DNA of 64,000 nucleotides from Gammaproteobacteria bacterium (GTDB taxonomy: Bacteria; Pseudomonadota; Gammaproteobacteria; Steroidobacterales; Foliamicaceae): NCBI GenBank assembly GCA_965213995.1, contig OZ243929.1:92134-156133 (forward strand), in the 5' to 3' direction. Made by a program: the position numbers and the translations under genes. This document shows positions 39,126 to 57,263 of this stretch, piece after piece (the first letter of the stretch is position 1; each line of letters starts with the position of its first letter). The notes beneath the pieces are model-generated. The model had not been told where the DNA came from. It was given only the letters and a program-made list of their open reading frames with translations, and did no database searches.

Positions 39126-39452
39126 TTGATGCCTGCCGGATCGGATAAAATAACTTGGATGAATGTTTCGGACTCCGCCCCTCTTGCGCGCAACGAAGCG
39201 GTCGTGTTCACCGAACTCGACGGCGATGTGGTGATGCTCGATGCCAAAGCTGGGCGCTACTACGAACTCGACTCCGTGGGCAGCCGCATCTGGACGCTGC
39301 TTGAGGATAAGCCCACCTTGGCGCAGTTGCGGGACGCGCTGGCGGTCGAGTTCGACGTTGGCGGCGAAGCCCTCCTTGAGGATATCCACCAATTTATGAG
39401 CGAGCTTGCCAAGCGCGGGCTCGTCGCCGAGGCTGGCGATGAAGCGGAGTGA
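39126..39452 (+). CDS. PqqD-family peptide chaperone (RRE; lasso B1-like)
   Basis: EAVVFTELDGDVVMLDAKAGRYYELDSVGSRIWTLLEDKPTLAQLRDALAVEFDVGGEALLEDIHQFMSELAKRGLV is a typical PqqD/RRE sequence pattern. Confidence 0.8.
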   Translation: MMPAGSDKITWMNVSDSAPLARNEAVVFTELDGDVVMLDAKAGRYYELDSVGSRIWTLLEDKPTLAQLRDALAVEFDVGGEALLEDIHQFMSELAKRGLVAEAGDEAE

Positions 39453-40044
39453 GCCGGTTTCCGCCGGCCCTAATCCGCCGCGCGTCCGCAAGCCGAAGGA
39501 AGGCGTGCGCCTGCTCGGCCCCGTGGATATCGCCCCCCTCGAAGCCATTCTCTCGCGCCTGACTGATAACGTCTGGCGCGCCGAGGACGAAAGCAAGCCG
39601 AACAAGTTCAGCTGCTTCCATCACACCCGCCATATGATTTTCCGCTTTAGCAGTTTCCGGGACGTCCGCGTTTTCCGCTCGCGCCCGGCCTGGCGCATCT
39701 GGAGCGGTTCGCTGCTGCCGGTAATGGCCGAGGCGAGCGCTGCCTACGGCTTCTCCGAACCGGTCTTTCCCAAGGCGATGTTCGCCCGGCTCGCCGCTGG
39801 CCACCGCATTGATGTCCACACCGACGGCTACAGCGCCGCCTGCCAAGCGCACAAGATCCACGTTCCGGTTCGCACCGAAGCCGCCGCCGTTATCGAGGTG
39901 GACGGCATCGAGCGCCATCTGCGCCAAGGGCACGCCTACGAGATCAACAACCTTATGTCGCACAGCGCCTTCAACGCCGGCGACCGCGACCGGGTGCATT
40001 TCATCTTCGAGGTGTTCGACGGATTCCCGCAGGGCGGCGGATGA
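39439..40044 (+). CDS. Aspartyl/asparaginyl beta-hydroxylase-family Fe(II)/2OG oxygenase
   Basis: ..GHRIDVHTDGY...HKIHVPVRT..IEVDG...LRQGHAYEINNLMSHSAFNAGDRDRVHFIFEV parallels the PF05118 core. The ATG at 39439 overlaps the PqqD gene end by 14 nt. Confidence 0.65.
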   Translation: MKRSEPVSAGPNPPRVRKPKEGVRLLGPVDIAPLEAILSRLTDNVWRAEDESKPNKFSCFHHTRHMIFRFSSFRDVRVFRSRPAWRIWSGSLLPVMAEASAAYGFSEPVFPKAMFARLAAGHRIDVHTDGYSAACQAHKIHVPVRTEAAAVIEVDGIERHLRQGHAYEINNLMSHSAFNAGDRDRVHFIFEVFDGFPQGGG

Positions 40045-40949
40045 AGGGCGGCGGCTGGTTCGCCACGTACGGGCTGCTCATTCGTTCCGAGTTGGCGCTG
40101 CCGCTATTCGCCCCCGCCGGGCCTGGCGAGCCGGATGCCGTCGTTCGCCTGGGCGCGGTGCCGGAGGCGCTGCCCCAACCCAGCCGCTCCCGGCGTTATT
40201 GGCAGGCGGCGCCCGGCGACTTCCTGCTGCGCTTCGGAGATGCGTTCCGCTGCCGCGTGACGGACGGCCGCGAAATCACGGTGCATCTCCTGGACGGCGG
40301 GCGCGAGCGGTTCCACTTTGCGAGTTCCGTCTGGACCGCCCTGCTGATGCAGCGCGGATTGCTGCCGCTCCACGCCAGCGCGGTATGGACGGAACAGGAC
40401 GGCGCCGTTCTTATCATGGGCGACTCCGGCGCCGGCAAATCGACGCTCGCCGCAGCGTTGATGGCTCGGGGCTTCAATATGCTCACCGACGATGTGGCCG
40501 CACTGAGCGCCGCTGCGGGTTCGCCGCCCCGCGTCGCGCCCGGCTATCCGAATCTGCGCCTGAAGGCCGATGCCTTGGAACAGGTCGCCACTCTGCCCAA
40601 CGGCATCGACGGCCTGACGCGGCACGGCACGGACAAGCATCTGCTGCCGGCGGAGAGGTTCGCCCGCAAGCCGCAGATTGTCCGTGCCGCCTATGTGCTC
40701 AAAAGAAGGACCGCCGAAGCGCTCGAACTGGAGAAAACGAGATCCGCCGAAGCCTTCCGAACCTTGACGCGTTTCATCCACCGCCCCGGGTACGTCCATG
40801 GATTGGGGCTTGTCGAGGCATACTTCAACATCTTGGCGAGCATCTCCGGGAAATTTCCGGTGACGCATGTGATCCGGCCCGCCGAGGGCATCAAGCCCCG
40901 CGCTTTGGCCCGCCGCATCGAATGCCATCTCGCCGACGGTTCCGTTTAG
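40041..40949 (+). CDS. HPr-kinase-like P-loop protein (HprK-related kinase; candidate precursor Ser kinase) copy 1
   Basis: LHASAVWTEQDGAVLIMGDSGAGKSTLAAALMARGFNMLTDDVAAL resembles the HprK C-terminal kinase core. ATGA overlap with the upstream oxygenase. Confidence 0.7.
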   Translation: MKGGGWFATYGLLIRSELALPLFAPAGPGEPDAVVRLGAVPEALPQPSRSRRYWQAAPGDFLLRFGDAFRCRVTDGREITVHLLDGGRERFHFASSVWTALLMQRGLLPLHASAVWTEQDGAVLIMGDSGAGKSTLAAALMARGFNMLTDDVAALSAAAGSPPRVAPGYPNLRLKADALEQVATLPNGIDGLTRHGTDKHLLPAERFARKPQIVRAAYVLKRRTAEALELEKTRSAEAFRTLTRFIHRPGYVHGLGLVEAYFNILASISGKFPVTHVIRPAEGIKPRALARRIECHLADGSV

Positions 40950-41121
40950 ATCGCGCCACAGCCTGCGTTCGCTCGCGTGAGCCGACTAAAGCATCATCCT
41001 TTGTTTGATCTGCGGCTTGATGCCGCCCTAGTTGCTAGCTAATAGGATCAGGAGAGAGGCAGATAGTTCACCGTCTCTTCAGGATAGGTACCTCTCCCGC
41101 TCATAGTGAATGATTCGATCG

Positions 41122-41246
41122 TCATTTCGGTGATGGCGGGAGTGGACCAAGGCCGTTTTTCGGGAAGAGCCGGATCGTCTTTACGATGATTGGATCGGGG
41201 GGGGGGGGGTAGCTAAGTTGCGATTCGCGGTCGACTGGCGCTTCAT
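41122..41246 (-). pseudogene. Poly-Pro-tract small ORF, type 1, out of frame as sequenced (candidate OFF state)
   Basis: RBS GAAGGAA, then ATG (41246) MKRQSTANRNLAT + C13. With C14 it would read ..PPPPDPIIVKTIRLFPKNGLGPLPPSPK*, as in the intact twin at 45887..46015. With C13 it stops after 4 codons. Confidence 0.4.
41197..41209. repeat. Homopolymer G13 (C13 on the coding minus strand)
   Basis: ggatcGGGGGGGGGGGGGtagctaagttgcgattc. The flanks are conserved with 45961-45978. Confidence 0.9.
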
Positions 41247-41367
41247 TGGGTATTCCTTCTTCGGAGAGACGGATGGGTCAGTTCCCCTATCATAGCAGAG
41301 TTCCGCATTTGCTGACTCTTGGGCAACGCGTTTGGAACGGCACAAGAAAACCCCGCAAGCGGCGGCG

Positions 41368-43308
41368 TCAGTCCGTCTGCCAGTCGAGGAAGCTCAGGGC
41401 GCGTACGATTTTTCCGGGTTGCCTGCGGTCGTCGGGCAGCCCGGCACTGGCTTCAAGGTAGGCGCGCAGCCTCGCCATGTCGAGGTAGCGGGCGCGGGCC
41501 GGCGTGTCGGAGCGGGCGGCGAGCCGTCCGGCAATCAAGGGCAGCGCCTCGCTCAAGCTATCGAAGCAGGGGCGGTGGCGCGCCGGGTCCGTCTTGTCGG
41601 TATGCTCCGCAACGCATGGGGGCAGCACGGATTTCAGGGACTGCCGGAAAAACCAGCGCGAACTGCGGCCGTAGCGGAACTGCTCGGGCGGCAATCCAAG
41701 GACGAATTCAATCAGGCGCCGGTCGAGCAGCGGATAGCGGTACTCGATGCCCGTTCGGGCGCCGCTCGCCGCCCAGTCCTGGATGCGCTGCTCGAGATGT
41801 CCGCTCCCCAGCCGTACCAGTTGCGTCTGCCGGACGCTGACCGGCCGGGCGGCGAGCCTGCCCTGCGGCGGGCGCCGATGCTTGCGGGCCAAGGCCGGAT
41901 GAACGAAGGATGGCCGCAGCATGCGGGGCCTTTGCCCCTTGAGCAGCGCGGAAACCGTATTCGAGGCACGGGGATGCACCAGCGGCAGAACCGCTTGGTG
42001 CGCCAGGAAGCGCCAGCTCCTCTGCCGTCGCCGCGCTTCCCTTAGCAGCTGGCGCCACCGCCCGCCCCGCAACAGCATGGGGTAGTAGTCCGCGCCGCTT
42101 GAGGAAGCGATTTCATCGCCGCCCCAGCCGGAAAGGATCACGCGCACATCCAATTCGGCGGCGCTGCGCTGCACCAGCGCCTCGTGCATCAGCACGCCTT
42201 GGTGGTCGGCCACCCGGGCGCCGTCGAGGCCGAGCCTTGCCAATGTGTGCTCCACCGAAACGGAGTGGTAGCGCGGATGGAGGCCCTCCTGCGCGCAAAC
42301 CGATTCGATCAGGCGGTATTCGGAAGCCTCGTTCTCGGGCTGGGAATCGTTTGGCGGCGGATGCCAGCACAGCGCGTGCAGCCGCCGGGCCGAAGGCCGC
42401 AGCTCGCGGGCCGCCAGCACGGCCACGCTCGACGAGTCCAGCCCGCCGCTCAGATGCGCGCCGACCGGCCCGGCGCCTTGCAGCCGGTCGCGCACGGCGC
42501 GGCGGTAGTGGTCGAGGAATTCCCGCTGGTAGTCCTGGTTCGACCCGCGGCCCGCGGCGGGCGCGTCCTCCGGGCGCCACCAGCGCCGCAAGCGCTCGCC
42601 TCGCCCGTTGGCGGCGATGCTGTGGCCGGGCGGCAGGCTGCGCACGGCGCGGAAGAAGGTGCTGTTCGTATCCGGCGTATTGCCCATGAGGTTAATGACG
42701 GCATGGGCCTCGTCCAGATCATCCTCCACGCCGGACGCGGCGAGCGCCGCTGCAATGTCGCTGGCGAAGACGAAGCGCCCGCCGCCCGCCAAGGCGTAAT
42801 AGAACGGACGGGCGCCCAGCGCATCGCGGGCGCAGAACAGCAGGCGCTTTGCGGGATCCCAAACCGCGAAGGCGTAGTCGCCGTGCAGCTGTAGGGGGCA
42901 GTTCTCGCCCCAGCGCCCGTAGGCCCGCAGGATCAGCCCGCAATCGGTTGCGCCGATGCTTTCCGCAGCGCCGAGGCCGAGGGCGCTGGCGAGTTCGGCG
43001 CGGTTGTCCAGCCGCGCGTCGGCCACGGCGATCAAGCCCCGGTCGGAGCATCGGGCTTGCCAAGCGTCTTCTTGCCCTTGTTCCCCGGCATCGGCCCGCA
43101 GCGCCCGGTATCCGAAGGAGACGGCGCCCCCGTTGATCCGCCCCGCGCGCCCTAGTCCCGGCAATTCGGCTAGCATCGCGCCGATAGGGTCCCGGTTCGG
43201 ATCCGGGTTCGCGGCATCGCCCGCTGCGCCCCGGTGGCATACCCCGCAAATTGTCCGCGCCAATGCTCGACTCCTATTTTCATCCCGCTTCTCATCGAAA
43301 CCGGGCAC
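41368..43308 (-). CDS. Asparagine-synthetase-like protein, lasso-cyclase type (copy 1)
   Basis: 646 aa. The N-terminus lacks Cys2 (..ARTICGVCHRG..). It has the ..LIAVADARLDNRAELASALG.. block and the SGGLDSS PP-loop motif. Confidence 0.75.
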   Translation of the reverse strand: MPGFDEKRDENRSRALARTICGVCHRGAAGDAANPDPNRDPIGAMLAELPGLGRAGRINGGAVSFGYRALRADAGEQGQEDAWQARCSDRGLIAVADARLDNRAELASALGLGAAESIGATDCGLILRAYGRWGENCPLQLHGDYAFAVWDPAKRLLFCARDALGARPFYYALAGGGRFVFASDIAAALAASGVEDDLDEAHAVINLMGNTPDTNSTFFRAVRSLPPGHSIAANGRGERLRRWWRPEDAPAAGRGSNQDYQREFLDHYRRAVRDRLQGAGPVGAHLSGGLDSSSVAVLAARELRPSARRLHALCWHPPPNDSQPENEASEYRLIESVCAQEGLHPRYHSVSVEHTLARLGLDGARVADHQGVLMHEALVQRSAAELDVRVILSGWGGDEIASSSGADYYPMLLRGGRWRQLLREARRRQRSWRFLAHQAVLPLVHPRASNTVSALLKGQRPRMLRPSFVHPALARKHRRPPQGRLAARPVSVRQTQLVRLGSGHLEQRIQDWAASGARTGIEYRYPLLDRRLIEFVLGLPPEQFRYGRSSRWFFRQSLKSVLPPCVAEHTDKTDPARHRPCFDSLSEALPLIAGRLAARSDTPARARYLDMARLRAYLEASAGLPDDRRQPGKIVRALSFLDWQTD

Positions 43309-43458
43309 CCGTTATTGTGCCAGTTGTTGGAGCAGCCCCGCCAGCATGCCAAGCAAATGCCAGCCTTGCCCCGCAGTAGAGGCCGCACCTGCAAGGGCGA
43401 CCCGAACCACAATTGCGCTCTCCCCCTATCGGGATTTGACGGCTAAATCTCAACCCGC

Positions 43459-43507
43459 ATCAATGGATGAAAATCAACCAAGGCTTGGTTGATTTTCATC
43501 CATTGAT
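43459..43507. promoter_or_regulatory. Perfect 24-bp inverted repeat (49-bp palindrome) in the divergent intergenic region
   Basis: ATCAATGGATGAAAATCAACCAAG g CTTGGTTGATTTTCATCCATTGAT. It is AT-rich, 50 nt upstream of the ATPase start at 43558 and 150 nt from the cyclase start. Confidence 0.5.
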
Positions 43508-43557
43508 CGGTATCATCCGTGCCTTGTTAGGCCGTATCGTCAGATCAGATTGCCACC

Positions 43558-44862: not shown

Positions 44863-44905
44863 CCCGCGTAGTCCGCGAACAGCGATGGCATCCGCCGCCG
44901 GGCGG

Positions 44906-45700
44906 CTATGAATTCCGGCGGGAATCGGCGAAATCGTAGCCGAATTCCGCGATGAGCTTGCGCTCCCTCAGAGCGACCAGCTCCCGCAGCTCGTTGCTGT
45001 AGCGGCCCGTGAACCCCTTGCCGCGCGGGGAGGCGTTCGCGGGGGGTTCCAGTTTGAGGTAGGCGGCGATGTTTTTGGTGATCGGCGCCCCGGTTTCCTC
45101 GAACAGCAGCAGCGCCTCCTCGCGGAGATTCTCGAACCGGCCGTAAAGAATCCTCCGCTCCTGCTTGGGGTGTGCGGGTTCAGGCACATGTGGGACTGGG
45201 GTTGTTTCCGCCTTGGCGGAGCGGGGACGGAACATCAGGTCGAACAGCCAGCCGTAGTAGCCGGCGCCGTCGGGATAGCGGGAGAAGTCCTCCGACATGA
45301 GTCCGGGCCCCTGCCTGCGCCCCGGCCCCCTCGCGGCCGTCGTTTTGGGCGCTGCCGCCGCCAGGCGGCGCAGCAGCGCGCGGCTCTCGCCGCTGCCGTC
45401 CCCGAGATTGAGAAACCGCGCGACCGTGCGCTCGAAGTCCAGCGCGCCCTGCTCGGAGAGAACCTGAAAGACGTATTGCCGCTTGCGGCGGTAGTCCTGG
45501 TGCATGGACAGATACCAGTCCCAGGGATTGCGAACGAACCCGATGACGGGCAGGCGCGAGTGGGCGGTCGGCAGGTCTTCGAGGCGCCCGTGGTACTGAA
45601 TCATCCGCGCGCCCGGGAATTCCCCCAGGATCAGGTTGTTGAGGAAGGTGCCGCCGGTTCGGGAAACATGGATGAAGACGAAGTGGTCGGTGACGATCAT
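44906..45700 (-). CDS. Sulfotransferase-family protein (copy 1)
   Basis: MIVTDHFVFIHVSRTGGTFLNNLI is a PAPS-loop-like HxxxTGGT motif. The C-terminus is ..YGRFENLREEAL...AEFGYDF. An IS481-IR-like 26-mer lies in frame at 45171-45196. Confidence 0.6.
   Translation of the reverse strand: MIVTDHFVFIHVSRTGGTFLNNLILGEFPGARMIQYHGRLEDLPTAHSRLPVIGFVRNPWDWYLSMHQDYRRKRQYVFQVLSEQGALDFERTVARFLNLGDGSGESRALLRRLAAAAPKTTAARGPGRRQGPGLMSEDFSRYPDGAGYYGWLFDLMFRPRSAKAETTPVPHVPEPAHPKQERRILYGRFENLREEALLLFEETGAPITKNIAAYLKLEPPANASPRGKGFTGRYSNELRELVALRERKLIAEFGYDFADSRRNS
45171..45196. repeat. Solo IS481-type inverted-repeat copy inside the sulfotransferase ORF
   Basis: TGTGCGGGTTCAGGCACATGTGGGAC differs at one position from the IRR of the IS at 4140-4165 (reverse complement). 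Confidence 0.7.
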
Positions 45701-45886
45701 CGCAGCATCGCCCGTGGCGGATTCGCTTTGCCCGTTGCGGCTTCGGGCCTAGCCCCCGGAAACCTTGTGTCTTGTGTCCCGACCGCTAGCTAGCTGAATA
45801 AGCACTACTACGAAATTCAGGGTAGGCACAACACTCACCCGGCGGGGTCCCCAGAGGGAGCCCATTCATCGTGGAAGATCCGATCG

Positions 45887-46015
45887 TCATTTCGGTGATG
45901 GCGGGAGCGCGCCAAGGCCGTTTTTCGGGAAGAGCCGGATCGTCTTTACGATGTTGGATCGGGGGGGGGGGGGGGGGGTAAGTTGCGATTCCCTATCGGG
46001 CGCTTGATTTTTCAT
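45887..46015 (-). CDS. Poly-Pro-tract small ORF, type 1 (42 aa, in frame)
   Basis: RBS AAGGA, then ATG (46015) MKNQAPDRESQLT-PPPPP-RSNIVKTIRLFPKNGLGALPPSPK*. It is part of track ORF 45887..46078. ~100 nt 3' of the tract are near-identical to 41122-41196. Confidence 0.45.
   Translation of the reverse strand: MKNQAPDRESQLTPPPPPRSNIVKTIRLFPKNGLGALPPSPK
45961..45978. repeat. Homopolymer G18 (C18 on the coding strand)
   Basis: ggatcGGGGGGGGGGGGGGGGGGtaagttgcgattc. Confidence 0.9.
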
Positions 46016-46110
46016 TGGACTCATCCTTTCCGTCGACATAAGGATTGTTTTCCATGGTAACAGAGAATGACGGGGCACTGGGGGAGGCTATCGGGAGGAT
46101 GAATTGCCTG

Positions 46111-47253: not shown

Positions 47254-47546
47254 TGGTGATAATCAGCAGAGCTATTGCTGATAATCATGACAATCAACAG
47301 CAGACCTGTCAATCACGCGGACCCGCCCCGCCGCCGGTGCGCGGCTCAGGTTCGAAATGTTTCTAGATCCCGCACATCACCAAAATTTTGGTAGTGTATC
47401 AGTTTGACTTTTCCCTCCGGCTTCCGCTGTTGGTACTGTCTCAGTTTGAAAATCACGGTGGTGGCTTGGCTCGAAGATCGTGCCTGCCGGCATGGGCCAG
47501 CCGGTCCCACAGGCCGCCCCTGGCCTGTGGGACCGGCTCCCTTTGG

Positions 47547-48317: not shown

Positions 48318-49493
48318 ATGGATGCCCGAACCAACCCTTACGCCCCCGGAGCCGGCGCCCCCCCGCCCGAGCTGGCCGGACGCGATGAACTCATCGACGA
48401 GGCCGCCATTGCCTTGGATCGGATACGCAATGGCTTGGCGGCCAAGAGCCTGCTCATGGTGGGGCTCCGCGGCGTGGGCAAAACCGTGCTCTTGAACCGC
48501 ATCTTCCGGGATGCGGAATGCCGGGGCTTCACCACGCTCCTGCTCGAAGCGCCGGAAGGGCGCTCGCTGCCCGGCTTGCTGGCCGCGCCGCTGCACAGCG
48601 CCCTTGCGAAGATGAGCCGCCGTGCCGCTGCCGGCGATGCCGCAAGGCGGGCGCTCCGGGCGCTTGCCGGATTTGCGCGCGCCATGAAGGTCAATTTCGG
48701 CGACATCAGCATCGGCATCGATATCGAGGCAGAGCCGGGGTTTGCGGACAGCGGCCACTTGGACTTCGACCTGAGCGATCTGCTCGCTGCGGTGGGCGAA
48801 GCCGCAAAGGACCAGAACACCGCGTTCGCACTGTTTATCGACGAACTGCAATACGTTGAGGAAAGCCAGCTTGCCGCCTTGATCGCCGCCCTTCACCGCG
48901 CCGCCCAACGGCAACTCCCCGTCACGCTCATTGGCGCCGGGCTGCCCCAACTCGTAGCCCACGCGGCCGCCGCGAAATCATACGCCGAAAGATTGTTCCG
49001 CTTTCCCGAAATAGGCCCGCTGCCCGAGGATGCGGCCCGACACGCCCTTGAAGCGCCCGCCAGGAAGCGGAATGTGCTTTTTCATCCCGATGCCCTTTCG
49101 GCGATCGTGCGGCGCACGCAAGGCTATCCCTACTTCCTTCAAGAATGGGGCAAGCACAGTTGGGATTGCGCCGAGGCATCCCCGATCACAGCGCAAGATG
49201 TCGATGCGGCCACGGCGCAAGCCACCGCGGAACTGGATGCCAGCTTCTTCCGCGCCCGTTTTGATCGGCTGGCCCCGTCGGAAAAGCGCTATTTGCGGGC
49301 TATGGCGGAGCTGGGTCCGGGGCCGCACCGTTCGGGGGAAATCAGCGGGATGCTCGCCAAGGGCGTGGCAGTCGTCGCGCCGACTCGCGCCAAGCTCATC
49401 GCAAAAGGCATGATCCACAGTCCCGCCCACGGCGACACCGGCTTTACCGTGCCGCTGTTCGACGAATTCCTGCGGCGGGTGCTGCGGGATTGA
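48318..49493 (+). CDS. P-loop ATPase (Orc1/Arch_ATPase-like)
   Basis: 391 aa. LLMVGLRGVGKTVLLN Walker A, FALFIDELQY Walker B. Its stop overlaps the next ORF start (TTGA). Confidence 0.65.
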   Translation: MDARTNPYAPGAGAPPPELAGRDELIDEAAIALDRIRNGLAAKSLLMVGLRGVGKTVLLNRIFRDAECRGFTTLLLEAPEGRSLPGLLAAPLHSALAKMSRRAAAGDAARRALRALAGFARAMKVNFGDISIGIDIEAEPGFADSGHLDFDLSDLLAAVGEAAKDQNTAFALFIDELQYVEESQLAALIAALHRAAQRQLPVTLIGAGLPQLVAHAAAAKSYAERLFRFPEIGPLPEDAARHALEAPARKRNVLFHPDALSAIVRRTQGYPYFLQEWGKHSWDCAEASPITAQDVDAATAQATAELDASFFRARFDRLAPSEKRYLRAMAELGPGPHRSGEISGMLAKGVAVVAPTRAKLIAKGMIHSPAHGDTGFTVPLFDEFLRRVLRD

Positions 49494-50464
49494 CTCGCAA
49501 GCCTTTGCGAGCGGCGTCCGCGCCCGGGAGCGCTTCGGAGCAGCCGTTGCGCCATTACCAGGGCTACGGCCTGCGCTTGGAGTCGAGCGTCGATTTGCCG
49601 TGGCCCGCCGCCGCGCCGTGCCCCGGTGACGAAGCGGATCTGTCCGTTCGCGGCGGGGCGGTGCCGCAGGCGCTCGCATCGCCGGCGGACGAATGCGGCT
49701 TTTGGCAGACGGCGCCCGGCGCCCTGCTGCTGAATGCGCCCGGCATCGCCCGTTGCCTGGTCTGCGAATCCGGCCGGCTGATCCGCTTCGATCCGGCGGA
49801 GGACGGCGGCGGCGGCGCGGTGGCCGCGGCGCTTGAATCCGCGCTCGCCGCCTGCCTGCAGATGCGCGGCGTCCTGACCCTGCGCGCCAGCGCCGTCGCC
49901 ACGGCCGAGGGCGCGGCGGTGCTGGCCGGGCGCGCCGCGACCGGCAAATCGACCCTGGCCGCGGCCCTGGCGGACCTCGGATACCCGCTGTTGGCCGACG
50001 GCATCGTTGCCGTTGCTGTTGCCGGCAACGGCGGCGGGGCGCCGCGCGCCCTGCCCGGATTTCCAAACATGCGCCTGCAAAACCGCGCGCTGAAAATTCT
50101 GGACCCCTCTTGGCAGTCCGCCGCCGCCCCCCCGCGCCCCGAAACGAAAAGCCGCATGGTTCCCGCCCGCCGCTTCCACGGCGAAGCCATGCCGGTGCGC
50201 GCCGTTTATCTGCTCAACCGGAAGGCGGATGCCGAAATCGCATGCAAGCAGCTTTCCCAGACCCAGGCGTTCGCCGCTCTGACCGCGGCCACCTGCCGTT
50301 TGCGGTTCCTGCGCGGCTTGGGCGCCGAGCGCGGCCATTTCCGCGCCGTCGCATCCGTCGCCAAGCGCGCGCCGGTGGAGCGCCTCACCTGGCCTGCCGC
50401 CGCCTGCGCGCCGCCGACCGCGGCCGATTGGATGGCTCAACGCCTGCCGCCGCCGTGCCCTTGA
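49490..50464 (+). CDS. HPr-kinase-like P-loop protein, copy 2
   Basis: LRASAVATAEGAAVLAGRAATGKSTLAAALADLGYPLLADGIVAV parallels 40041..40949. The putative TTG start is uncertain. Confidence 0.65.
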   Translation: MTRKPLRAASAPGSASEQPLRHYQGYGLRLESSVDLPWPAAAPCPGDEADLSVRGGAVPQALASPADECGFWQTAPGALLLNAPGIARCLVCESGRLIRFDPAEDGGGGAVAAALESALAACLQMRGVLTLRASAVATAEGAAVLAGRAATGKSTLAAALADLGYPLLADGIVAVAVAGNGGGAPRALPGFPNMRLQNRALKILDPSWQSAAAPPRPETKSRMVPARRFHGEAMPVRAVYLLNRKADAEIACKQLSQTQAFAALTAATCRLRFLRGLGAERGHFRAVASVAKRAPVERLTWPAAACAPPTAADWMAQRLPPPCP

Positions 50465-51324
50465 TTCTGCTCGCCTCCTACCCCAAGTCCGGCAACACCT
50501 GGATGCGTGCGCTGCTGTCCAACTACCTGAGCGAAGGCGAGGAGCCGGTTTTCGTCAACGCGCTGGTGAACAGCCCCATCCTCAGCCGCCACGAGTTCGA
50601 CGAGCGGCTGGGGCTTGCGTCCGCGGCCCTGACCGACGGCGAAATCCTGCGGCTGCGTCCGCGCCTCAACGAATCGCTGGCGGCCGAAGCCGCCGACGCT
50701 GCCGTGCCCGTCTTCGCGAAGACGCACGAGCGCTTTCCGCGCCTGCCGGACGGGGCGGCGCTGTACGCCGAGCCGATGTTTTCCGGCGCGGTCTGCATGG
50801 TGCGCAACCCGCTGGATGTCGCCGTCTCCTACGCGCATCACCTGCAATGCGACCTCGACCGCGCCGTCGCAACGATGGGCGATGCCGAGGCCATGCTCGC
50901 GCCCGAGCGCAACCGCATCCACGCCGCGCTTCCGAGCCATGTTTGCGACTGGAGCGGCAATGTCCTGAGTTGGCTTGAGCAAACGGAATTGCCGCTGCGA
51001 ACGATACGCTACGAGGATATGCACGCGAACCCCGAAGCCGCGCTGGAGGCGGTGGCCGCTTTCGCGGGCTTGCGCCGCGATTCCGCCCGCCTGGCCCGGG
51101 CCGTGGACCACTCGCGCTTCGAGCGGCTGCGCGAGCAGGAGGCGCGCCACGGGTTCTGGGAGCGCCAGCCCACGGCGCCGAGCTTCTTCAGGGGCGGCCG
51201 GGTGGGCGACGGGCGCGGCGCGCTGAGCCCGGAGCAGATTCGGCGGATTGCGGACCGGCACCGCCCGGCCATGGCCCGGCTGGGCTACCTGGAGGAGGCC
51301 GAGCGCTTCCTCGCTGACTGTTGA
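50461..51324 (+). CDS. PAPS-dependent sulfotransferase (copy 2)
   Basis: The TTG start overlaps the upstream stop (TTGA). It opens immediately with LILLASYPKSGNTWMRALLSNYL (5'-PSB loop PKSGNTW) and continues ..RYEDMHANPEA.. An N-terminal scrap of a paralogue lies at 58362..58408. Confidence 0.75.
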   Translation: MILLASYPKSGNTWMRALLSNYLSEGEEPVFVNALVNSPILSRHEFDERLGLASAALTDGEILRLRPRLNESLAAEAADAAVPVFAKTHERFPRLPDGAALYAEPMFSGAVCMVRNPLDVAVSYAHHLQCDLDRAVATMGDAEAMLAPERNRIHAALPSHVCDWSGNVLSWLEQTELPLRTIRYEDMHANPEAALEAVAAFAGLRRDSARLARAVDHSRFERLREQEARHGFWERQPTAPSFFRGGRVGDGRGALSPEQIRRIADRHRPAMARLGYLEEAERFLADC

Positions 51325-51378
51325 TCTGGGCGGATTCGCTTTGACCGCCGCATTTGGCCGCCAGTCAACGGCCAGATA

Positions 51379-52338
51379 TCAGATCATGTTGTCGAAATAG
51401 GCGATGGTTTTCTTCAGGCCCTCGCCAAGCGCGATGGACGGCTCCCAGCCCAGCTTCTCCTTGGCCAGCGTGATGTCGGGACAACGCCGGACGGGGTCGT
51501 CCTCTGGCAGCTCCTGGTAGACGAGTTTGGACTTGGTGCCCGTCAGCTCGATCACCTGTTCTGCGAGTTCCTTGATGGAGAACTCCGCGGGATTGCCCAG
51601 ATTGACCGGCCCGGTCAACTCGTCGGGCGCATCCATCAGCCGCCGGAAACCTTCGATCAAATCGTCCACGTAACAAAATGAACGGGTTTGGCTGCCGTCG
51701 CCGTGGATAGTGATGTCGTCGCCCTTGAGAGCCTGGACGATGAAATTGGACACCACCCGCCCGTCACCGGGATGCATCCGGGGGCCATAGGTGTTGAAGA
51801 CCCGGGCCACCCGGATATTCAGATTGTGTTGGCGGCGATAGTCGAAGAACAGGGTTTCCGCGCAGCGCTTGCCCTCGTCATAACAGCCCCGGCGGCCGAT
51901 GGGATTGACGTTGCCCTTGTAATCCTCGGTCTGGGGGTGGATGTCCGGATCTCCGTAAACCTCGCTGGTGGAAGCCTGGAATATCTTTGCCCGGACCCGC
52001 TTGGCCAGCCCCAGCATGTTGATCGCGCCGTGCACGCTGGTCTTGATCGTCTGCACGGGATCGTACTGGTAATGCACCGGAGACGCCGGGCAGGCGAGAT
52101 TATAGATCTCGTCGACTTCGATATAGAGGGGGAATGTCACGTCATGGCGCATCAGCTCGAAATGGGGGGAATCGAACAGGCCGAGGAGGTTGTCCTTGGC
52201 GCCGGTGAAGTAGTTATCGACGCACAGGACATCGTGCCCTTCGGCAACCAGGCGCTCGCAGAGGTGAGAACCGAGAAAACCGGCCCCTCCGGTCACCAGG
52301 ATGCGTTTTTTATGGAGCTTATATCGATTGCTTGACAT
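51379..52338 (-). CDS. uxs: UDP-glucuronate decarboxylase (UDP-xylose synthase)
   Basis: 319 aa. [44 protein letters not shown]. Confidence 0.85.
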
Positions 52339-52561: not shown

Positions 52562-52747
52562 TCAGGAAACACCATAATCTTGGAATTCCGAGTTGAGGGA
52601 GTTTCTCTTTGGGCCAGAGAATGTCTCATCTAGGCCAACCGTTTTGACGGTCGGCGGGTGCCAGGGACGTTTACGGGATTCGCCGCTGCGGTTGCCGGTG
52701 GAGTTGCGCCGATTCTGGGGGGGGGGGGGGGTGGTTGTGGTGGGCAT
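52562..52747 (-). CDS. Candidate lasso-type precursor peptide with N-terminal poly-Pro tract (type 2, in frame)
   Basis: ATG at 52747. MPTTTT-PPPP-QNRRNSTGNRSGESRKRPWHPPTVKTVGLDETF|SGPKRNSLNSEFQDYGVS*. The leader block is conserved with 57928..58126 and 63044..63235, the C-terminus is variable and the last residue is Ser. Part of track ORF 52562..52780. Confidence 0.5.
   Translation of the reverse strand: MPTTTTPPPPQNRRNSTGNRSGESRKRPWHPPTVKTVGLDETFSGPKRNSLNSEFQDYGVS
52717..52731. repeat. Homopolymer G15 (C15 on the coding strand)
   Basis: gattctGGGGGGGGGGGGGGGtggttgtggtgggcat. Confidence 0.9.
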
Positions 52748-53002: not shown

Positions 53003-53302
53003 GTGAGAGGTTACACTTACCGCGTGATACTGAGCTTTCGCCACAAGGGCCTCAAGCTGCTGTTCGAAAAGGGCGACCGGAGAAAAGTGCAATCGGAGTT
53101 CGCGGATAAAATCGAGCGGATACTGGCCCGCCTCGAGGAGTCCTCGACCGTTGACAACATGGACATCCCCGGTTTCCGATTGCACCGGTTGAGAGAAAAC
53201 CTCGCGGGCCGCTGGGCGGTCTCGGTGTCCGGCAATTGGCGGGTGGTCTTCAGATTCGAGGAGGGCCGCGCCAGCGAAGTGGACCTGTTGGACTACCATT
53301 AG
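53003..53302 (+). CDS. higB: HigB-type (RelE superfamily) toxin
   Basis: ..VILSFRHKGLKLLFEKGDRRKV...FRLHRLRENLAGRWAVSVSGNWRVVFRFEEGRASEVDLLDYH. The true start is probably the in-frame GTG at 53024. Confidence 0.75.
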   Translation: MRGYTYRVILSFRHKGLKLLFEKGDRRKVQSEFADKIERILARLEESSTVDNMDIPGFRLHRLRENLAGRWAVSVSGNWRVVFRFEEGRASEVDLLDYH

Positions 53303-53314
53303 GAGCAATCAGCG

Positions 53315-53605
53315 ATGGCTATGAAGAACCCGCCCCATCCGGGCCTCTCCGTAAGGCGCGATTGCCTGGAGCCTTTGGGGCTGAACATCACGGGAGCGGC
53401 CAAGCAACTCGGCGTCAGCCGAAAGCAGCTTTCCGATATCGTGAACTGCCGTGCCGGCATTTCCCCGGAAATGGCCATCCGGCTTGACAAGGCGTTTGGA
53501 GGCGGCGCCGAAACCTGGCTGAGGCTCCAAGCGGCTTATGACCTGGCGCGGGCAATGAAGCGCGCGGATCAATTCAAAGTGCGGAGGTTGCGGCCGGCGG
53601 CATGA
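53315..53605 (+). CDS. higA: HigA-type antitoxin (XRE HTH)
   Basis: [77 protein letters not shown]. Confidence 0.8.
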
Positions 53606-54404
53606 TCCGGTAGCCGAAGTGCTCCAGCAAATCGGCGCGGCTGCCGAATACGCGGTTGAACGCCTCGATTTTCGCGGCGTCGAGCCGGTCGATTTGCCGG
53701 CGGTTCATGTTGGCGAGCATCTCGTCGTACATCCCGTCCTTCACCCGCAGGCGCTGGCGCAGCTTGAGGTCGCGCAGTTCGGGAACCAGCGCGCGGATCC
53801 GCTCCTCGACCTCATGCGGCGCATCGCACATGTCCTCGTAGGTGAAAAAAGCCCCCCGGCCGCCGTGCCGCTCCAGGTTCCGGCGCTGCAGTTCCATGCA
53901 GGCGACGACATGCCGCGCGGCCGCGGAGGGGAGGTCGCCGCCGAAGCGGACGGCCTTCCGGGGCTGGTTCCTGCAAATGCCTTCGCACACGGCGTAGGGG
54001 TTGCGCACCATGAACAGGAACTTGGCGTTCGGAAAGTGCCGCGCGAGCTCGTCCACATGCAGCAGGAAATGCGGCGTCTTGGTGTAGAACACGGAGGCGG
54101 CGGGGTCGCGGGCGAACGCCTGGAAGTGCCAGGCTTTGCGTGTGCGCGGCCAGTCGTAGGCGTCCGGGTCGGCCAGACGGCTCCGCCATTCGGGCTCGCT
54201 CCAGATCAGCCCGCCGTGCTTGAGCGTGGTGGGGCCGGCGAAGCCGAGCGCGAACTGGCCTTCCCGCGGCAGGTTCCAGGTTGCCTTGCTGGTCGCCATC
54301 GCCTCCTTGAGGAAACTGGAGCCGCTGTTGTTCGGCGCGATGCCGAAAAGGTGCGTGCGAACGGCGCGCTCGAGGTCGTGCATCGCCCCGTACGCCGCGC
54401 TCAT
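53574..54404 (-). CDS. Sulfotransferase-family protein (copy 3)
   Basis: ATG at 54404 overlaps the GT8 stop (ATGA). ..[18 protein letters not shown].. (P-loop-like), ..[15 protein letters not shown]... It is the C-terminal part of track ORF 53574..55349. The assignment is tentative. Confidence 0.5.
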
Positions 54405-55396
54405 GGCGGCTTCCCCGCCTGTTCGCCGCCGCCAACACCGGCAGGCCCGCCGAAGGCGCGCGTCGCCAAGGCGGGCCAGGCCCGTCGGAGATGCGCGTCG
54501 TTCAGGCAGGCCAGCCACGCCTCGTGCCACCAGGCATAGGCCGGATGGGGGGCGAAAGCGGGGTCGCCGTCGGTCCAGCGCAGCATGGCGGCGGCGCTCC
54601 AGGGCTTGACCGGGCCGGTGAAGTGCAGCACCTTCGCGTCCTTCGGCGCCAGCCCCTCGCGCGCCAGAATCGCCTCCCTCATGTGCAGCGGATAGTTGTA
54701 AGTCGAACTGACCAGGCTTTGCCGTCCCGCGAAGTGCTGGTTCAGCAGGAACTGGTCGTTGGTGTGGACCGTGTCCGTGCCGCGCCAGGCGTCCGGCGCG
54801 ACCCGGCCCAGCAGCTCCGCGTAGGCGCGCTCGCCCGTCAGGCGCTCGTCGATAAGCAAAAACCCGGAATTGAACGTCCGCTCCAGCGCGCCTTTCGCCC
54901 CCGCAAGGGCGGGGCTGGCGAGCGGCTGGAACGAGACGGCATCGCGGCATCCTCCTGCCATGGACACGGAATCCCCGCAGCAGATCAGCGCCTCCCGGCG
55001 GTCGAAGAGTTCCCAGACCGGGCCGCGGAACAGGAGGTCGCTGTCGCAATAGAGCACCTTGCGGTAGCCGGCGATGCGGAACGCCTCCAGGCAGTGGAAG
55101 CTGGAAAGCCACCGCCGCTTCGCCAATGGCCAGCCGGCGAAGGCGGCCAGGCGGCGTCGCAGCGCGGGGCGCACCGGCTCCGGCCGCAGCGCCGGACAGG
55201 CTCGCGCCAGCGCCGCGCGGCGCTTGGCGGACAGTCCGTTGTGGAACAGCAGCATCCCGCCGCAAAAGCCGGGATGCTGCTGTAGAAACGAATGGGCGGC
55301 GACGATGGCGCCGGGCAGGAATTTCTCGGTGGCGGCCAGCGCGATGCAAACGTCCGCTCCGCGGCCGGCCGGGATGCCTGGCGGCTTAGAAGTCAA
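54401..55396 (-). CDS. Glycosyltransferase family 8-like
   Basis: 331 aa. ..VCIALAATEKFLPGAIVAAHSF.., ..VLYCDSDLLF.. (DxD), ..FNSGFLLID... It overlaps the cyclase-2 stop by 11 nt. Confidence 0.6.
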   Translation of the reverse strand: MTSKPPGIPAGRGADVCIALAATEKFLPGAIVAAHSFLQQHPGFCGGMLLFHNGLSAKRRAALARACPALRPEPVRPALRRRLAAFAGWPLAKRRWLSSFHCLEAFRIAGYRKVLYCDSDLLFRGPVWELFDRREALICCGDSVSMAGGCRDAVSFQPLASPALAGAKGALERTFNSGFLLIDERLTGERAYAELLGRVAPDAWRGTDTVHTNDQFLLNQHFAGRQSLVSSTYNYPLHMREAILAREGLAPKDAKVLHFTGPVKPWSAAAMLRWTDGDPAFAPHPAYAWWHEAWLACLNDAHLRRAWPALATRAFGGPAGVGGGEQAGKPP

Positions 55397-57263
55397 GGAA
55401 CTGCAACGCCTGGATCAAGGGCCTGGGGCGCAGGTGGCGGCGAATGCGGGCAGGGTCGAAGTCGCCCAGCAGTTCAAGGTCGCGCGTCAGGCGGCCCAGG
55501 TTCAGGTAGCGGCCGCGCGCCGTTCCCGCGCCGCCGCCGGCGATCATCGAGCGCGCTTGCGCCAAGGTTTCGGCAAGCGCGTCCCTATAGGCCCGGTACC
55601 GAGCGGGGTCCGTTTTGTCGCGGTTCCGCAGCACCAGTTCGGGCAGCACTTCGCGCTGGGAACGCCGCATCAGCCGCCGGCTTTCGGGGCCGCGGAGGAA
55701 CTGCTCCGGCGGCAGCGCCAGGACGAATTCCAGCAGCCGGCGGTCCAGCAGCGGATAGCGGTACTCGATTCCCAGCCGCGCCCCGCTCGCGGCCCAGCCT
55801 TCGATGCGCCTGTCGATATAGCCGCTCGCAAGCAGGCCGAGCTGGACCGCTCGCGCGCCGGCCACCGGGACCGTCGGCGGCATGGGCAGCAGGCGGGCGC
55901 GGCGGGCGAAATCGGGGTGCAGGTAGCGGCCCGTCGGCGGCAGCGGCGTCTTGCCTTGGCGCAGCCGCCAAAGCGTGTCCCTCAAGGTTCTCACCGGTTC
56001 CATGGCTTGGACAAACGGCAGCGCCGCGCAGCGCGCGATGCCGAGCAGGGGAAAGCGGCGGTGCCCGAACTCGCGCCGCAGCGCCGCGAGCCGGCCTTTG
56101 CGCAAGAGGTCGGGGTGGTAGCCGCGGCCGCTGAACGAGACCCCCTCGTCGCCGCCCCAGCCGGACAGCAGCACGCCCACGCCCTGCGCCGCTGCCGAAC
56201 GCTGCACGGGGCATTCGTTGAGGTGGTAGCTGTCGTGCCGGGTCACATCGCGGCGCAAGGTCGCCAGCATATCGGCGGCAGTGGGCGGGCAGTGGTGGAC
56301 CTCCAGGCCCTCCTGGGCCGCGACCGCTTCGACAAGGCGGTATTCGCCGCCGGGAGCGGCGTCGCGGCTCCCCTCCGCCGCCTCGGGCAGCCAGGTGAAC
56401 GCAGGCGGGGCAGGGCGGCCCGCGGCCCGCAGCGCCCGGGCCGCGAGCGCCGAAACGCAGGAGGAGTCGAGGCCGCCGCTCAGATGCACGCCCACGCGGC
56501 GGGGGCCGCCCGCGCGATCCGCCACCGCGGCGGCGCACAGCGCGAGGCAGGCCTCGGCGGCTTCGCCGTCGTCGATGCGGCCAAGCGCGGGAATCCGCTC
56601 CGGATGCCACCAGCGCCGCACGCGCCAGCCGCCGGCTTGTGCCAATAGCAAGTGGCCCGGCGGCAGGCGCCGCACCGCGCGGTGGAACGTGCGTTCGCCG
56701 AACGGCCAGAAAATGTGGCGGGCAAGCCAGGAGGCGGTCGCGTCCTCGTCCAGGTCCGCCTCCACGCCGGGCGCCGCGAGCACCGCGTTCACGTCGCTGG
56801 CGAACACGATGCGGTCCGCCGCGGCGGCGTAGTAGAGCGGCCGGGCGCCAATGTGGTCCCGGGCAATAAGCAGCCGGCGGCGTTCGGCGTCCCACGCGGC
56901 GAAAGCGTAATCGCCGTACAGCCGCTGCGGACACTCCGCGCCCCATTTGCGCCAGGCGCGCAAAATCAACTCCGCGTCCGTCAGCGGCTCGTCCTTTCGT
57001 TCGGAAACGCCCAGCGCGGCGCGCAACTCGTCGCGCCCGTCGATGCGGGCGCTTGCGACCACCCAATCGCCCGCGCCGCCGCGCGCGCAGCAGGCCGCGC
57101 CGTCCGCCGCCTCATGCCCGCGCCAGCCCAAGCGGGCCGCTTCCGCCGTCCAGGCCGCGGTGGCATCTGTTCGGCGCCCCGGCAGGGCGGCCACCATGGC
57201 ATCGAGCGCCGCCGCGCCGGGGTCGCCGCGCAAGGCTTGGATTCCGCAGATCATGCTGGCCAT
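55386..57263 (-). CDS. Asparagine-synthetase-like protein, lasso-cyclase type (copy 2)
   Basis: 625 aa. MASMICGIQ (no Cys2), ..VVASARIDGRDELRAALG.., SGGLDSS PP-loop. The first ~147 codons are duplicated at 63523-63965. Confidence 0.75.
   Translation of the reverse strand: MASMICGIQALRGDPGAAALDAMVAALPGRRTDATAAWTAEAARLGWRGHEAADGAACCARGGAGDWVVASARIDGRDELRAALGVSERKDEPLTDAELILRAWRKWGAECPQRLYGDYAFAAWDAERRRLLIARDHIGARPLYYAAAADRIVFASDVNAVLAAPGVEADLDEDATASWLARHIFWPFGERTFHRAVRRLPPGHLLLAQAGGWRVRRWWHPERIPALGRIDDGEAAEACLALCAAAVADRAGGPRRVGVHLSGGLDSSCVSALAARALRAAGRPAPPAFTWLPEAAEGSRDAAPGGEYRLVEAVAAQEGLEVHHCPPTAADMLATLRRDVTRHDSYHLNECPVQRSAAAQGVGVLLSGWGGDEGVSFSGRGYHPDLLRKGRLAALRREFGHRRFPLLGIARCAALPFVQAMEPVRTLRDTLWRLRQGKTPLPPTGRYLHPDFARRARLLPMPPTVPVAGARAVQLGLLASGYIDRRIEGWAASGARLGIEYRYPLLDRRLLEFVLALPPEQFLRGPESRRLMRRSQREVLPELVLRNRDKTDPARYRAYRDALAETLAQARSMIAGGGAGTARGRYLNLGRLTRDLELLGDFDPARIRRHLRPRPLIQALQFLDF

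Follow-up and report, generated by a model that had tools for sequence, protein, structure and literature searches.

A probable modified lasso-type, kinase-class RiPP locus with poly-C runs in its precursor genes in a gammaproteobacterium

What is made by a set of peptide-modifying genes that lies scattered through a polysaccharide island, and where are the peptides? The question is raised by a 64,000-nucleotide (nt) stretch of gammaproteobacterial DNA (the window; contig OZ243929.1, positions 92,134 to 156,133), which carries a PqqD-family leader-binding protein, kinase-like and AsnB-like proteins, sulfotransferases and glycan genes. The original prediction, made from the letters alone, described a lasso-like pathway in duplicated, partly decayed modules, and both halves of it held: the AsnB-like proteins match the lasso cyclase model best, sister strains carry the leader peptidase (B2), related loci contain exporters and five precursors with a lasso-type leader are present, and the modules include a truncated third cyclase, a kinase remnant at 62799-62957, a missing B2 and three precursors out of frame. 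Our reading is that this is probably a modified lasso-type locus of the kinase class of peptides made on the ribosome and modified after translation (RiPPs), composed of one shared service set and several precursor/cyclase satellites, with precursor genes gated by runs of cytosine (poly-C). Candidate genes in the window, whose G+C content is high, were taken from the list of open reading frames (ORFs) by a third-position G+C filter and scanned against Pfam and NCBIfam; related loci are numbered L001 onwards.

The peptides are encoded by a family of small genes. A 150-nt repeat (41096-41233 and 45861-45998) is the 5′ part of two of them, precursor genes A and B; its candidacy as an RNA element or miniature inverted-repeat transposable element was rejected on that ground, and an Rfam scan of 36-64 kb gave nothing at E ≤0.1. 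A profile made from A and B retrieved 147 small ORFs in 66 of 82 loci, and three more precursors (C, D and E) lie in the window, where all five are on the minus strand. In L003 and L005, a Shine-Dalgarno sequence and ATG are followed by some 12 residues, then by poly-Pro, a leader that hardly varies and a divergent core with Ser at its end. Shorter precursor ORFs from an internal ATG (MTIESFTM...) were rejected, with the conserved W-x-x-P lying upstream of that ATG and a single unbroken ORF running in sister strains from a start further upstream that has a Shine-Dalgarno sequence. The family consensus is x-K-K-P-W-x-x-P-T-I-R-x7-T-x-S-G-x7-E-x3-Y-x-P-x-S, the terminal Ser being the C-terminus; W and P are invariant, with conservation of 90% or more for G, E and Y. 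In the window, the leaders read K/R-K/R-P-W-x-x-P-x-I/V, followed by a Thr two to three residues ahead of a nearly invariant Gly, and the cores hold a nearly invariant Glu, a Tyr four residues on and the C-terminal Ser. This Ser ends all five window precursors and 110 of 124 unique family tails, as compared with 10% of all small ORFs, and kinases of this class, a proteobacterial one included, are known to act on a C-terminal Ser (PMC8498205, PMC9266682). In form as in spacing, the W-x-x-P-x-(I/V) element, with I, V or L in last place across the family, resembles YxxPxL, the motif of lasso leaders at -17..-12 (PMC10368454). In 80 related loci from several phyla, a precursor lies within 3 kb of 61 of 87 AsnB-like genes (about 70%). 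Pfam and NCBIfam hold no model for the family, and gene-caller predictions of its members are few and either unnamed or labelled "hypothetical"; a 23-mer of the leader region had no match when metagenomes were scanned, and exact-protein look-ups with window products, meant to reach past the window ends, gave no record.

The five window precursors differ in whether they can be read through from their start codons. Precursor A (41048..41246) lies 159 nt from the AsnB-like gene C1 and reads MKRQSTANRNLAT, a C13 run (41197-41209), then RKDDPALPEKRPWSTPAITEMTIESFTMS followed by GRGTYPEETVNYLPLS; its frame is lost across the run in this assembly, and it forms a continuous ORF in L003 (C21), where the protein is predicted as P0126, and in L005 (C22). 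Precursor B (45786..46015; MKNQAPDRESQLT, a C18 run at 45961-45978, then EKRPWRAPAITEMTIGSSTMNGLPLGTPPGECCAYPEFRSSAYSAS) is likewise out of frame here and in frame in both L003 copies (C10 and C16). Those two copies, which differ in their C runs, belong to a tandem duplication, carried by sister strains (L003 5548-6154 against 7092-8355), of precursor B and the 5′ part of the gene for a 264-aa protein. Precursor C (52562..52747; MPTTTTPPPPQNRRNSTGNRSGESRKRPWHPPTVKTVGLDETFS followed by GPKRNSLNSEFQDYGVS, with a C15 run at 52717-52731) is in frame and corresponds to the predicted protein P0132. Precursor D (57928..58126) lies 665 nt upstream of the second AsnB-like gene, C2, and reads MSNT, a C16 run (58101-58116), then EPRKRSWRPPTVKTVELTETR followed by GSPRFNAVQEESPSYGFFLGEEQS, out of frame here. 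Precursor E (63044..63235; MRSRPNKNRNLTPPPPPPPEFLEKPRKRSWRPPTVKTVNLGETRS followed by GDNSSLSTEFGEYFLQDS, C22 run at 63180-63201), 89 nt from a third, truncated cyclase copy, is in frame and has a strong Shine-Dalgarno sequence.

Why, then, should genes so well conserved in their leaders be interrupted by homopolymers? Between start codon and leader, all five window precursors carry a pure poly-C run of 13-22 nt, and of about 130 distinct precursor genes, 81 encode their poly-Pro in an unbroken C run of 9-27 nt. The 1.71 Mb of loci contain 144 C/G runs of at least 9 nt, and 90 of them stand on the coding strand no more than 150 nt upstream of the W codon of a precursor. No start codon is possible between run and W codon in 69 of the 81 genes, which places the run inside the ORF. 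Elsewhere in the same genes Pro is encoded by CCG (163 codons), CCC (107), CCT (86) and CCA (42), so the homopolymer is a feature of the DNA and not of codon bias. Among strains that are 96-99.6% identical, the run measures 13, 21, 17, 22 and 16 nt in A and 18, 10/16, 17/15, 21 and 17 nt in B. These genes thus combine a run of at least 9 nt in the 5′ coding region with a length that is polymorphic between close strains, as homopolymer contingency loci do, and the run length decides whether the start codon and the leader share a frame. In the window, A, B and D are out of frame and C and E are in, while the calls across copies divide into roughly 37 in and 43 out. From this we infer slipped-strand frame switching, by which the precursors would be turned on and off independently of one another; alternatives or additions to it are slippage of the ribosome on CCC-C and a dependence on elongation factor P.

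A plainer explanation is that the runs are poly-Pro spacers translated stably in frame, and that the frame differences are assembly errors, with no switching at all. Exact homopolymer lengths are unreliable in assemblies from long or short reads, so the on/off calls may in part be consensus error; the in-frame share of about 46%, with every in-frame ATG counted, is near random, as a noisy consensus would give, and intact ORFs running from Met through poly-Pro and leader to core are called in many assemblies. Yet lengths from 10 to 22 nt between such closely matching flanks go far beyond the typical error of one or two bases, and variants that both stay in frame, 12 nt apart, occur in independent assemblies (8 Pro in P0121, 4 Pro in P0124). 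Moreover, the runs consist exclusively of CCC in genes that otherwise use four Pro codons, and G/C runs of this kind are hypermutable according to established work on contingency loci. We consider the spacer explanation unlikely. The presence, position and variability of the C runs are certain, and it is their exact lengths that are uncertain in assemblies.

Homopolymeric G/C tracts gate surface genes in Neisseria, Haemophilus, Campylobacter and Helicobacter. Such simple-sequence contingency loci share with the precursor genes a long homopolymer just past the start codon, a length that varies in close strains and the dependence of the frame on that length. They differ in that their tracts are known from surface proteins, lipooligosaccharide and capsule enzymes and restriction systems, whereas the switching proposed here is read from sequence. 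We found no report of homopolymer tracts in RiPP precursor genes, and to our knowledge no other natural-product repertoire has been proposed to be gated by contingency-type switching. The runs also account for the precursors having been missed by gene callers and genome-mining tools. Elsewhere in the window, a 216-aa ORF that has no Pfam match (47547-48197, minus strand) begins MIRSTPPPPQ.., with its poly-Pro encoded by a pure C15 run (48170-48184) right after the ATG and followed by a signal-peptide-like stretch, and poly-C gating in this genome may not be limited to peptide precursors. A 19-nt homopolymer also occurs at 21013-21031 inside an AlgX-like ORF (20664-22136).

The enzymes that would act on these peptides include two full-length AsnB-like proteins, both encoded on the minus strand and 45% identical to one another. 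C1 (41368..43263) scores 313.6 bits against the lasso cyclase model NF033535 (cut-off 525) and C2 (55386..57263; MASMICGI..) 288 bits, this model being the best family for each. The identity of C1 agrees with the original prediction; its start does not, since 43263, which gives the MARTICGV start used in relatives, is likelier than the 43308 first proposed. The copy at 63393..63965 (C3′, minus strand), taken from the outset for a truncated third, matches C2 closely over its first 152 aa and then runs into unrelated sequence, 63522-64000 being a 99.2% identical duplicate of the 5′ end of C2 (56820-57298). The family is large, with 445 cyclase relatives in species-representative genomes and 4 to 7 or more paralogues in many genomes.

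Could these proteins instead be glutamine-dependent amidotransferases of a polysaccharide pathway, amidating for example uronic acids? The sulfotransferases and a glycosyltransferase would then join them in building a sulfated exopolysaccharide, with the PqqD/kinase set an unrelated neighbour. Polysaccharide genes do abound in the window (epimerases, UDP-glucose dehydrogenase, carbamoyltransferases, AlgX-like, Bac_transf and Wzy_C), Poly_export and BBP2_2 genes adjoin the cluster in relatives, and the AsnB-like proteins match the XrtA/PEP-CTERM amidotransferase model in part. On the NCBI models, however, C1 and C2 score 314 and 288 bits as lasso cyclases, 173 and 171 as asparagine synthases and 137 and 130 as exopolysaccharide amidotransferases, and set beside the curated cut-offs of asparagine synthetase and amidotransferase models the values are 173 against 267, 137 against 817 (the exopolysaccharide model) and 136 against 570 bits. 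In relatives from a cyanobacterium, an alphaproteobacterium, an acidobacterium and two gammaproteobacteria, the lasso cyclase model is again the best, at 324-406 bits. A search against solved structures gave only a local match to E. coli AsnB (36 bits); in an alignment with that enzyme the PP-loop SGGLDSS is retained, and the columns of Asn74 and Glu76 are both occupied by Ala, inside a nearly invariant A-D-A-R-L-D. The Cys is not N-terminal, with 2-5 residues before it in almost every one of 120 homologues; the early observations that it is not at position 2 and that an A-R-(L/I)-D-(N/G)-R motif is present remain true after the start correction. With the equivalents of Asn74 and Glu76 lost, the outcome that would have overturned the original prediction, a housekeeping or exopolysaccharide amidotransferase with an intact glutaminase, was not found by model scores and alignment. 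Together with the precursor genes near most AsnB-like genes across phyla, this makes the amidotransferase explanation very improbable, and the comparison supports an assignment as lasso-type cyclases. A Cys-Gly-(I/V/L) sequence is kept near the N-terminus of the family (C and G at least 90% conserved) despite the lost glutamine-site residues, and it resembles the pro-peptide form of amidotransferases with an N-terminal nucleophile.

On the plus strand at 36-41 kb, several genes had been named correctly from the letters. The PqqD-family protein, a RiPP recognition element (RRE, B1; 39126..39452), scores 61.2 bits in Pfam (cut-off 23.4), and its best NCBIfam match is lasso_PqqD_Bac (59.4 bits, cut-off 80). 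An oxygenase gene of the Asp/Asn beta-hydroxylase family (39439..40044; Asp_Arg_Hydrox, Pfam 45 bits) is translationally coupled on both sides, as had been seen, through a 14-nt overlap with the PqqD gene and an ATGA overlap with the kinase gene. The latter encodes K1 (40041..40949), an HprK-like peptide kinase. Its hidden Markov model (HMM) matches are weak, with a Pfam score of 28.3 bits under the cut-off of 33.3, and the call as HPr-kinase-like is borne out by an intact catalytic motif (HASAVWTEQDGAVLIMGDSGAGKSTLAAALMARGFNMLTDD) in the full form H-x16-G-x2-G-x-G-K-S-x15-D-D, which 56 of the 81 family kinases share. The H, G-x2-G-x-G-K-S and D-D residues of lasso kinases were found to be needed by mutagenesis (PMC10368454). 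The HPr-rel-A system of NCBIfam was considered for this pair and rejected, with 42.7 bits against a cut-off of 200 for the kinase (TIGR04352) and 26.9 against 35 for PqqD (TIGR04353). Upstream of PqqD, the gene for a PF14907 (NTP_transf_5) nucleotidyltransferase-family protein, first placed at 36202..37407, spans 36133..37407 (plus strand; Pfam 172.6 bits), and the protein is a candidate tailoring enzyme; its homologues adjoin or are fused with B2 in L012, L015, L039, L040, L046, L061, L065 and L078. A B2 domain fused to the window protein was sought with Pfam and a family HMM, and none was found.

If the parts are those of a lasso pathway, one would expect a B2 peptidase and an exporter, and in the 64-kb window tblastn and a family HMM found no B2 (best E 0.48) and no homologue of an ATP-binding cassette (ABC) exporter was detectable, in line with a caveat of the original prediction. 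Sister strains show where the former would have stood. In L001, the locus of the closest homologue (98% identity), a Transglut_core3 (Pfam) gene diverges from the PqqD gene and is followed by Poly_export and a BBP2_2 porin. L003, from a Pseudomonadales metagenome-assembled genome, is 99.2-99.6% identical in DNA to window positions 39141-51634, and its protein beside the PqqD gene passes the lasso B2 model NF033537 (76.7 bits, cut-off 33), as does a protein of L015. The site is a junction at 38924..39141, defined by blastn break points in L001 (15951/19750) and L003 (14131/17926), where about 200 nt stand in place of a 3.8-kb sister segment that holds the lasso B2 peptidase, Poly_export, the BBP2_2 porin and a 158-aa ORF. 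Immediately before it, and directly upstream of the PqqD gene, lies a Wzy_C (O-antigen-ligase-like) membrane protein gene (37570..38967, plus strand; Pfam 69.5 bits), whose 3′ end carries a G13 run (38924-38936) exactly at the junction lacking the B2 segment. This gene and that for a priming sugar transferase with Bac_transf and CoA_binding_3 domains (34541..36145, minus strand; Pfam 212 bits) are only 86-87% identical to their L003 counterparts (Wzy_C 86%), against 99.5% for the peptide genes, which points to a recombination that swapped the polysaccharide arm and removed B2. Judged by these break points, the window strain has lost or replaced the 3.8-kb segment. Many related loci contain ABC exporters. 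Sister strains also show a duplicated cyclase 3′ end (L001 13471-13731) around an inserted segment with a CbiA-type ATPase.

With neither B2 nor an exporter nor the Wza/porin pair in the window, and with three precursors (A, B and D) out of frame, this strain has a locus that is either partly dead or reliant on genes elsewhere in the genome. The stronger form of the first option, that it is here a non-functional relic whatever the family does in other genomes, draws further on the truncated cyclase, the kinase remnant, a transposase fragment, a degenerate second kinase-like protein (K2) and the DUF4143, AAA_16 and HigBA genes inserted between modules. It has to be set against large enzyme genes that are all intact ORFs and 96-100% identical to those of sister strains, and against precursors C and E, both of which are in frame with good ribosome-binding sites. 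Furthermore, the window covers 64 kb of a 2.48-Mb contig, and the sister genome L079 keeps a second PqqD with a B2 fragment about 50 kb away. That the locus is a relic here is a possibility we hold to be real, if less likely than not, and pseudomycoidin, which can mature without a leader peptidase (PMC9266682, PMC8498205), is of relevance to a window that has no B2.

How closely do the peptides themselves follow the lasso definition? By that definition, Gly, Ala, Ser or Cys opens the core and an Asp or Glu stands at 7-9. The invariant Gly lies 15-18 residues past the W, and exactly 17 in 45 of 101 precursors. With this Gly as residue 1, the first Asp or Glu falls at 7-9 in 65 of the 101 cores and at 10-12 in the remaining 36; known lasso rings are 7-9 (PMC10368454). 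Window cores A (E7/E8) and E (E9) fit that range, whereas C and D have E10, as does B, unless its cleavage site lies nine residues further on. The conserved Glu keeps an almost constant distance from the C-terminus, and its distance from Gly varies. A core that starts one residue earlier would place Thr at -2 and make the rings one residue larger. Several points weigh against our reading. Thr stands at -3 from the invariant Gly, not at -2, in 58 of 101 precursors, and only the 65 cores just counted offer an acceptor in the known range, the first candidate of window B, C and D being at 10; one of the two rules, Thr(-2) or ring size, must give way. Every cyclase score is under the curated lasso cyclase cut-off, the PqqD protein scores under the lasso-specific one, K2 has neither the catalytic His nor the second Asp, and B2 and exporter are missing from the window. 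The targets of the sulfotransferases, glycosyltransferase and hydroxylase are guesses, and polysaccharide could be the substrate instead. Finally, a lasso fold cannot be read from sequence, and the product is known here from its genes alone.

These points could mean that the product is a RiPP made with lasso-type parts that forms no threaded lasso, such as a larger, unthreaded head-to-side-chain macrolactam of 10-11 residues or a peptide altered otherwise at the Glu, for example by amidation, with heavy decoration of the tail as its functional part. In its favour are the late acceptors, the many cyclase/precursor modules that have no RRE or B2 within 10 kb, and the conserved Cys-Gly near the cyclase N-terminus, which has no known role in lasso cyclases. 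On the other hand, complete loci hold the full lasso tool-kit (an RRE, a B2 that passes the curated model and a cyclase nearest to the lasso model), two thirds of the cores fit 7-9, and a plug and tail would look much like the 8-residue tail, fixed in length and bearing a bulky Tyr. The non-threaded product strikes us as rather improbable. Because many cores place the acceptor outside 7-9 and Thr is usually at -3, we file the region as working like a lasso pathway, an assignment that the genes support, with leader and ring rules only partly matching the strict definition.

Beyond the service set, further tailoring genes occur in satellites. An operon headed by C2, predicted to continue with a glycosyltransferase of family 8 (GT8) and a sulfotransferase (57263..53574), is as described, with Pfam or NCBIfam matches for all three products: GT8 (54401..55396, minus strand; Pfam 55.6 bits) is followed by ST3 (53574..54404, minus strand; Sulfotransfer_3, Pfam 48.4 bits) as last gene of the unit D-C2-GT8-ST3. 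A second kinase-like gene paired with a sulfotransferase dependent on 3′-phosphoadenosine-5′-phosphosulfate (PAPS) had been placed at 49490..51324, and both genes are there. The first product, K2 (49490..50464, plus strand), retains the P-loop and has lost the catalytic His and the second Asp; the second, ST1 (50455..51324, plus strand), scores 77.6 bits for Sulfotransfer_1. K2 shares a TTGA overlap with the upstream AAA_16 gene (48318-49493) and, separately, overlaps ST1 (50455 against 50464). A Sulfotransfer_1 domain is beside or fused to 36 of the 81 family kinases, 12 of these 36 having no full motif, and such motif-less proteins may be adaptors and not kinases. A remnant of another HprK-like gene (62799..62957, minus strand) was detected by hmmsearch with the family profile (E 6e-5). 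The claim of a further sulfotransferase at 44906..45700 (minus strand) could not be confirmed. This 264-aa protein (U264), encoded directly downstream of precursor B and conserved in L001-L011, has no match in Pfam (E up to 5), NCBIfam or a PDB sequence search, its single-sequence AlphaFold model is unusable (pLDDT 34) and its hhalign comparison with Sulfotransfer_1 relatives of the locus is weak (P 0.0085); PAPS-loop-like motifs seen by eye are the sole support for the call, and it may be a remote sulfotransferase. From the enzyme families present, the peptides would probably carry phospho, sulfo, hydroxy and glycosyl modifications.

The arrangement of these genes elsewhere shows how the parts may belong together. 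The complete locus L039 runs Bac_transf, Wzy_C, precursor, PqqD, Sulfotransfer_3, GT8, a fused kinase-Sulfotransfer_1, precursor, hydroxylase, cyclase, ABC, precursors, PF14907, B2, Poly_export and BBP2_2. B2 or PF14907 lies beside Poly_export and BBP2_2 in four lineages (L001/L003, L039, L046 and L061), PF14907 and B2 are fused in L040, L065 and L078, homologues of Bac_transf adjoin peptide genes in L001/L003, L037, L039, L046 and L061, and the Wzy_C neighbourhood of the window recurs in L039, L046 and L014. Given this recurrent synteny with B2 and PF14907 in distant lineages, the polysaccharide genes are more likely part of the system than chance neighbours, though what they would do to the peptide we can only infer. 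Modules of precursor, cyclase, GT8 and Sulfotransfer_3 often have no RRE of their own, which suggests that one RRE/B2 set serves several modules via the shared leader. The window follows this pattern, with one service set and then the modules A/C1, B/U264, AAA_16-K2-ST1, C, D/C2-GT8-ST3 and C3′/E.

What remains of the window is taken up by a polysaccharide island, interrupted by mobile or defence-type genes, with genes for methyltransferase, AlgX-like, carbamoyltransferase, epimerase, UDP-glucose dehydrogenase, GT4, Bac_transf and Wzy_C proteins. Duplications within it include carbamoyltransferase genes (4206-6326 and 22798-24919, 97% identical), AlgX-like genes (1068-2326 and 20705-21969, 82%) and AAA_16 genes (6376-7494 and 31519-32637, 88%). 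Genes for AAA_14/DUF4143 and AAA_16 ATPases lie at 43558-44862, 46111-47253, 48318-49493, 30098-31288, 31546-32880 and 6403-7764, and such genes also stand beside peptide genes in L001, L002, L003 and L005. A HigB-like toxin and a helix-turn-helix (HTH) antitoxin (53003-53605) separate precursor C from the Sulfotransfer_3 gene, whose 3′ end is overlapped on the opposite strand by the antitoxin ORF. At 12539-16682, an HTH_3/Peptidase_M78 protein precedes a 181-aa ORF and a DEAD-box helicase, the latter with an MrfA Zn-binding (MZB) domain; the group has the look of a defence or mobile-element module. DUF6791-ThiF and DUF2971 proteins (59522-61843), located between insertion-sequence remnants HTH_38 (58484-59095) and a DDE_Tnp_1 fragment (61913-62671), may be a defence-type insert that parts the third peptide module from the second.

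A mechanism for the complete pathway can be proposed from these parts. PqqD would bind the shared leader, after which K1 would phosphorylate the C-terminal Ser of the linear precursor, as in paeninodin and with the proteobacterial SyanK, and the oxygenase would hydroxylate an Asn or Asp. The B2 Cys-peptidase would cut off the leader, and the cyclase would adenylate the conserved Glu so that a macrolactam is closed with the new N-terminus. PF14907, GT8 and the sulfotransferases would decorate the tail, giving a phospho-Ser-linked sugar, a modified conserved Tyr or both. The product would leave by an ABC pump, probably joined by Poly_export/BBP2_2, the Wza-like outer-membrane pair found with B2 in relatives.

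Tyrosine sulfation of a RiPP is known from RaxX, a precedent for sulfation of the conserved Tyr. Kinase-class lasso clusters have been described in Firmicutes and Proteobacteria, and putative sulfotransferase and nucleotidyltransferase genes, some of the latter fused to B2, lie beside them (PMC8498205, PMC9266682). The paeninodin type, including SyanK/SyanA of Sphingobium yanoikuyae (Zhu et al. 2016, reviewed in PMC8498205 and PMC9266682), resembles our locus in its split B1/B2, AsnB-like cyclase, HprK-like kinase motif and precursor ending in the Ser that is phosphorylated, and its nucleotidyltransferase-B2 fusion corresponds to L040, L065 and L078. In contrast, the present family has W for the Y of YxxPxL, poly-Pro encoded by C runs and the tail E-x3-Y-x-P-x-S (SyanA being compared by description only). 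It also has several cyclase/precursor satellites in each genome, operons with GT8 and Sulfotransfer_3, the oxygenase of the Asp/Asn-hydroxylase family and linked genes for polysaccharide export. In pseudomycoidin of Bacillus pseudomycoides (PsmK, PsmN), the C-terminal Ser is phosphorylated and hexoses are added to the phosphate by a nucleotidyltransferase-family protein (PMC9266682, PMC8498205), which may be a model for the roles of K1 and PF14907 here, PsmN being likened by description. That system differs in being from Firmicutes with a single precursor, and its description includes neither sulfotransferases nor a hydroxylase, GT8 or export porins. The BsfK cluster of Bradymonas is of the proteobacterial type with A, B1, B2, C, D, kinase and nucleotidyltransferase; there, B1 speeds phosphorylation and leader removal, and departures from Thr(-2) are documented (PMC10368454). 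However, BsfK phosphorylates Ser3 in the ring, the precursor ends in Asp and the ring is Gly1-Asp8 (PMC10368454). For the oxygenase, the canucin hydroxylase CanE sets a precedent of tail-residue hydroxylation on a linear lasso precursor, though as an Fe/2-oxoglutarate enzyme of another family (PMC8498205). A 2026 review lists no sulfated lasso peptide (PMC13352647), and we found no report in the literature of sulfated lasso peptides or of this precursor family.

What follows for the family is, first, that a large unannotated group of gene clusters is now supplied with its precursors, in the form of a consensus and of the complete reference loci L039 and L003 for expression; sulfated, hydroxylated and glycosylated members of the kinase class have so far only been guessed from neighbouring genes. 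Ring acceptors at 10-11, if real, would widen the known limits of the lasso fold, and a hypermutable homopolymer conserved across phyla would amount to contingency gating of a natural-product repertoire. More tentatively still, marine, probably sponge-associated bacteria of several phyla may keep such poly-C-gated, decorated lasso-like repertoires, with capsule-type export, as variable peptides of the host interface. If this is true, a clonal population would express shifting subsets of phospho-glycosylated, Tyr-sulfated and hydroxylated peptides, some with rings of 10-11 residues locked by bulky tail groups. They would exit via an ABC pump, a Wza-like channel and a porin, with Wzy_C and Bac_transf supplying the glycan or attaching it to the C-terminal Ser, and would serve as variable surface or host-interface molecules, not as classical antibiotics.

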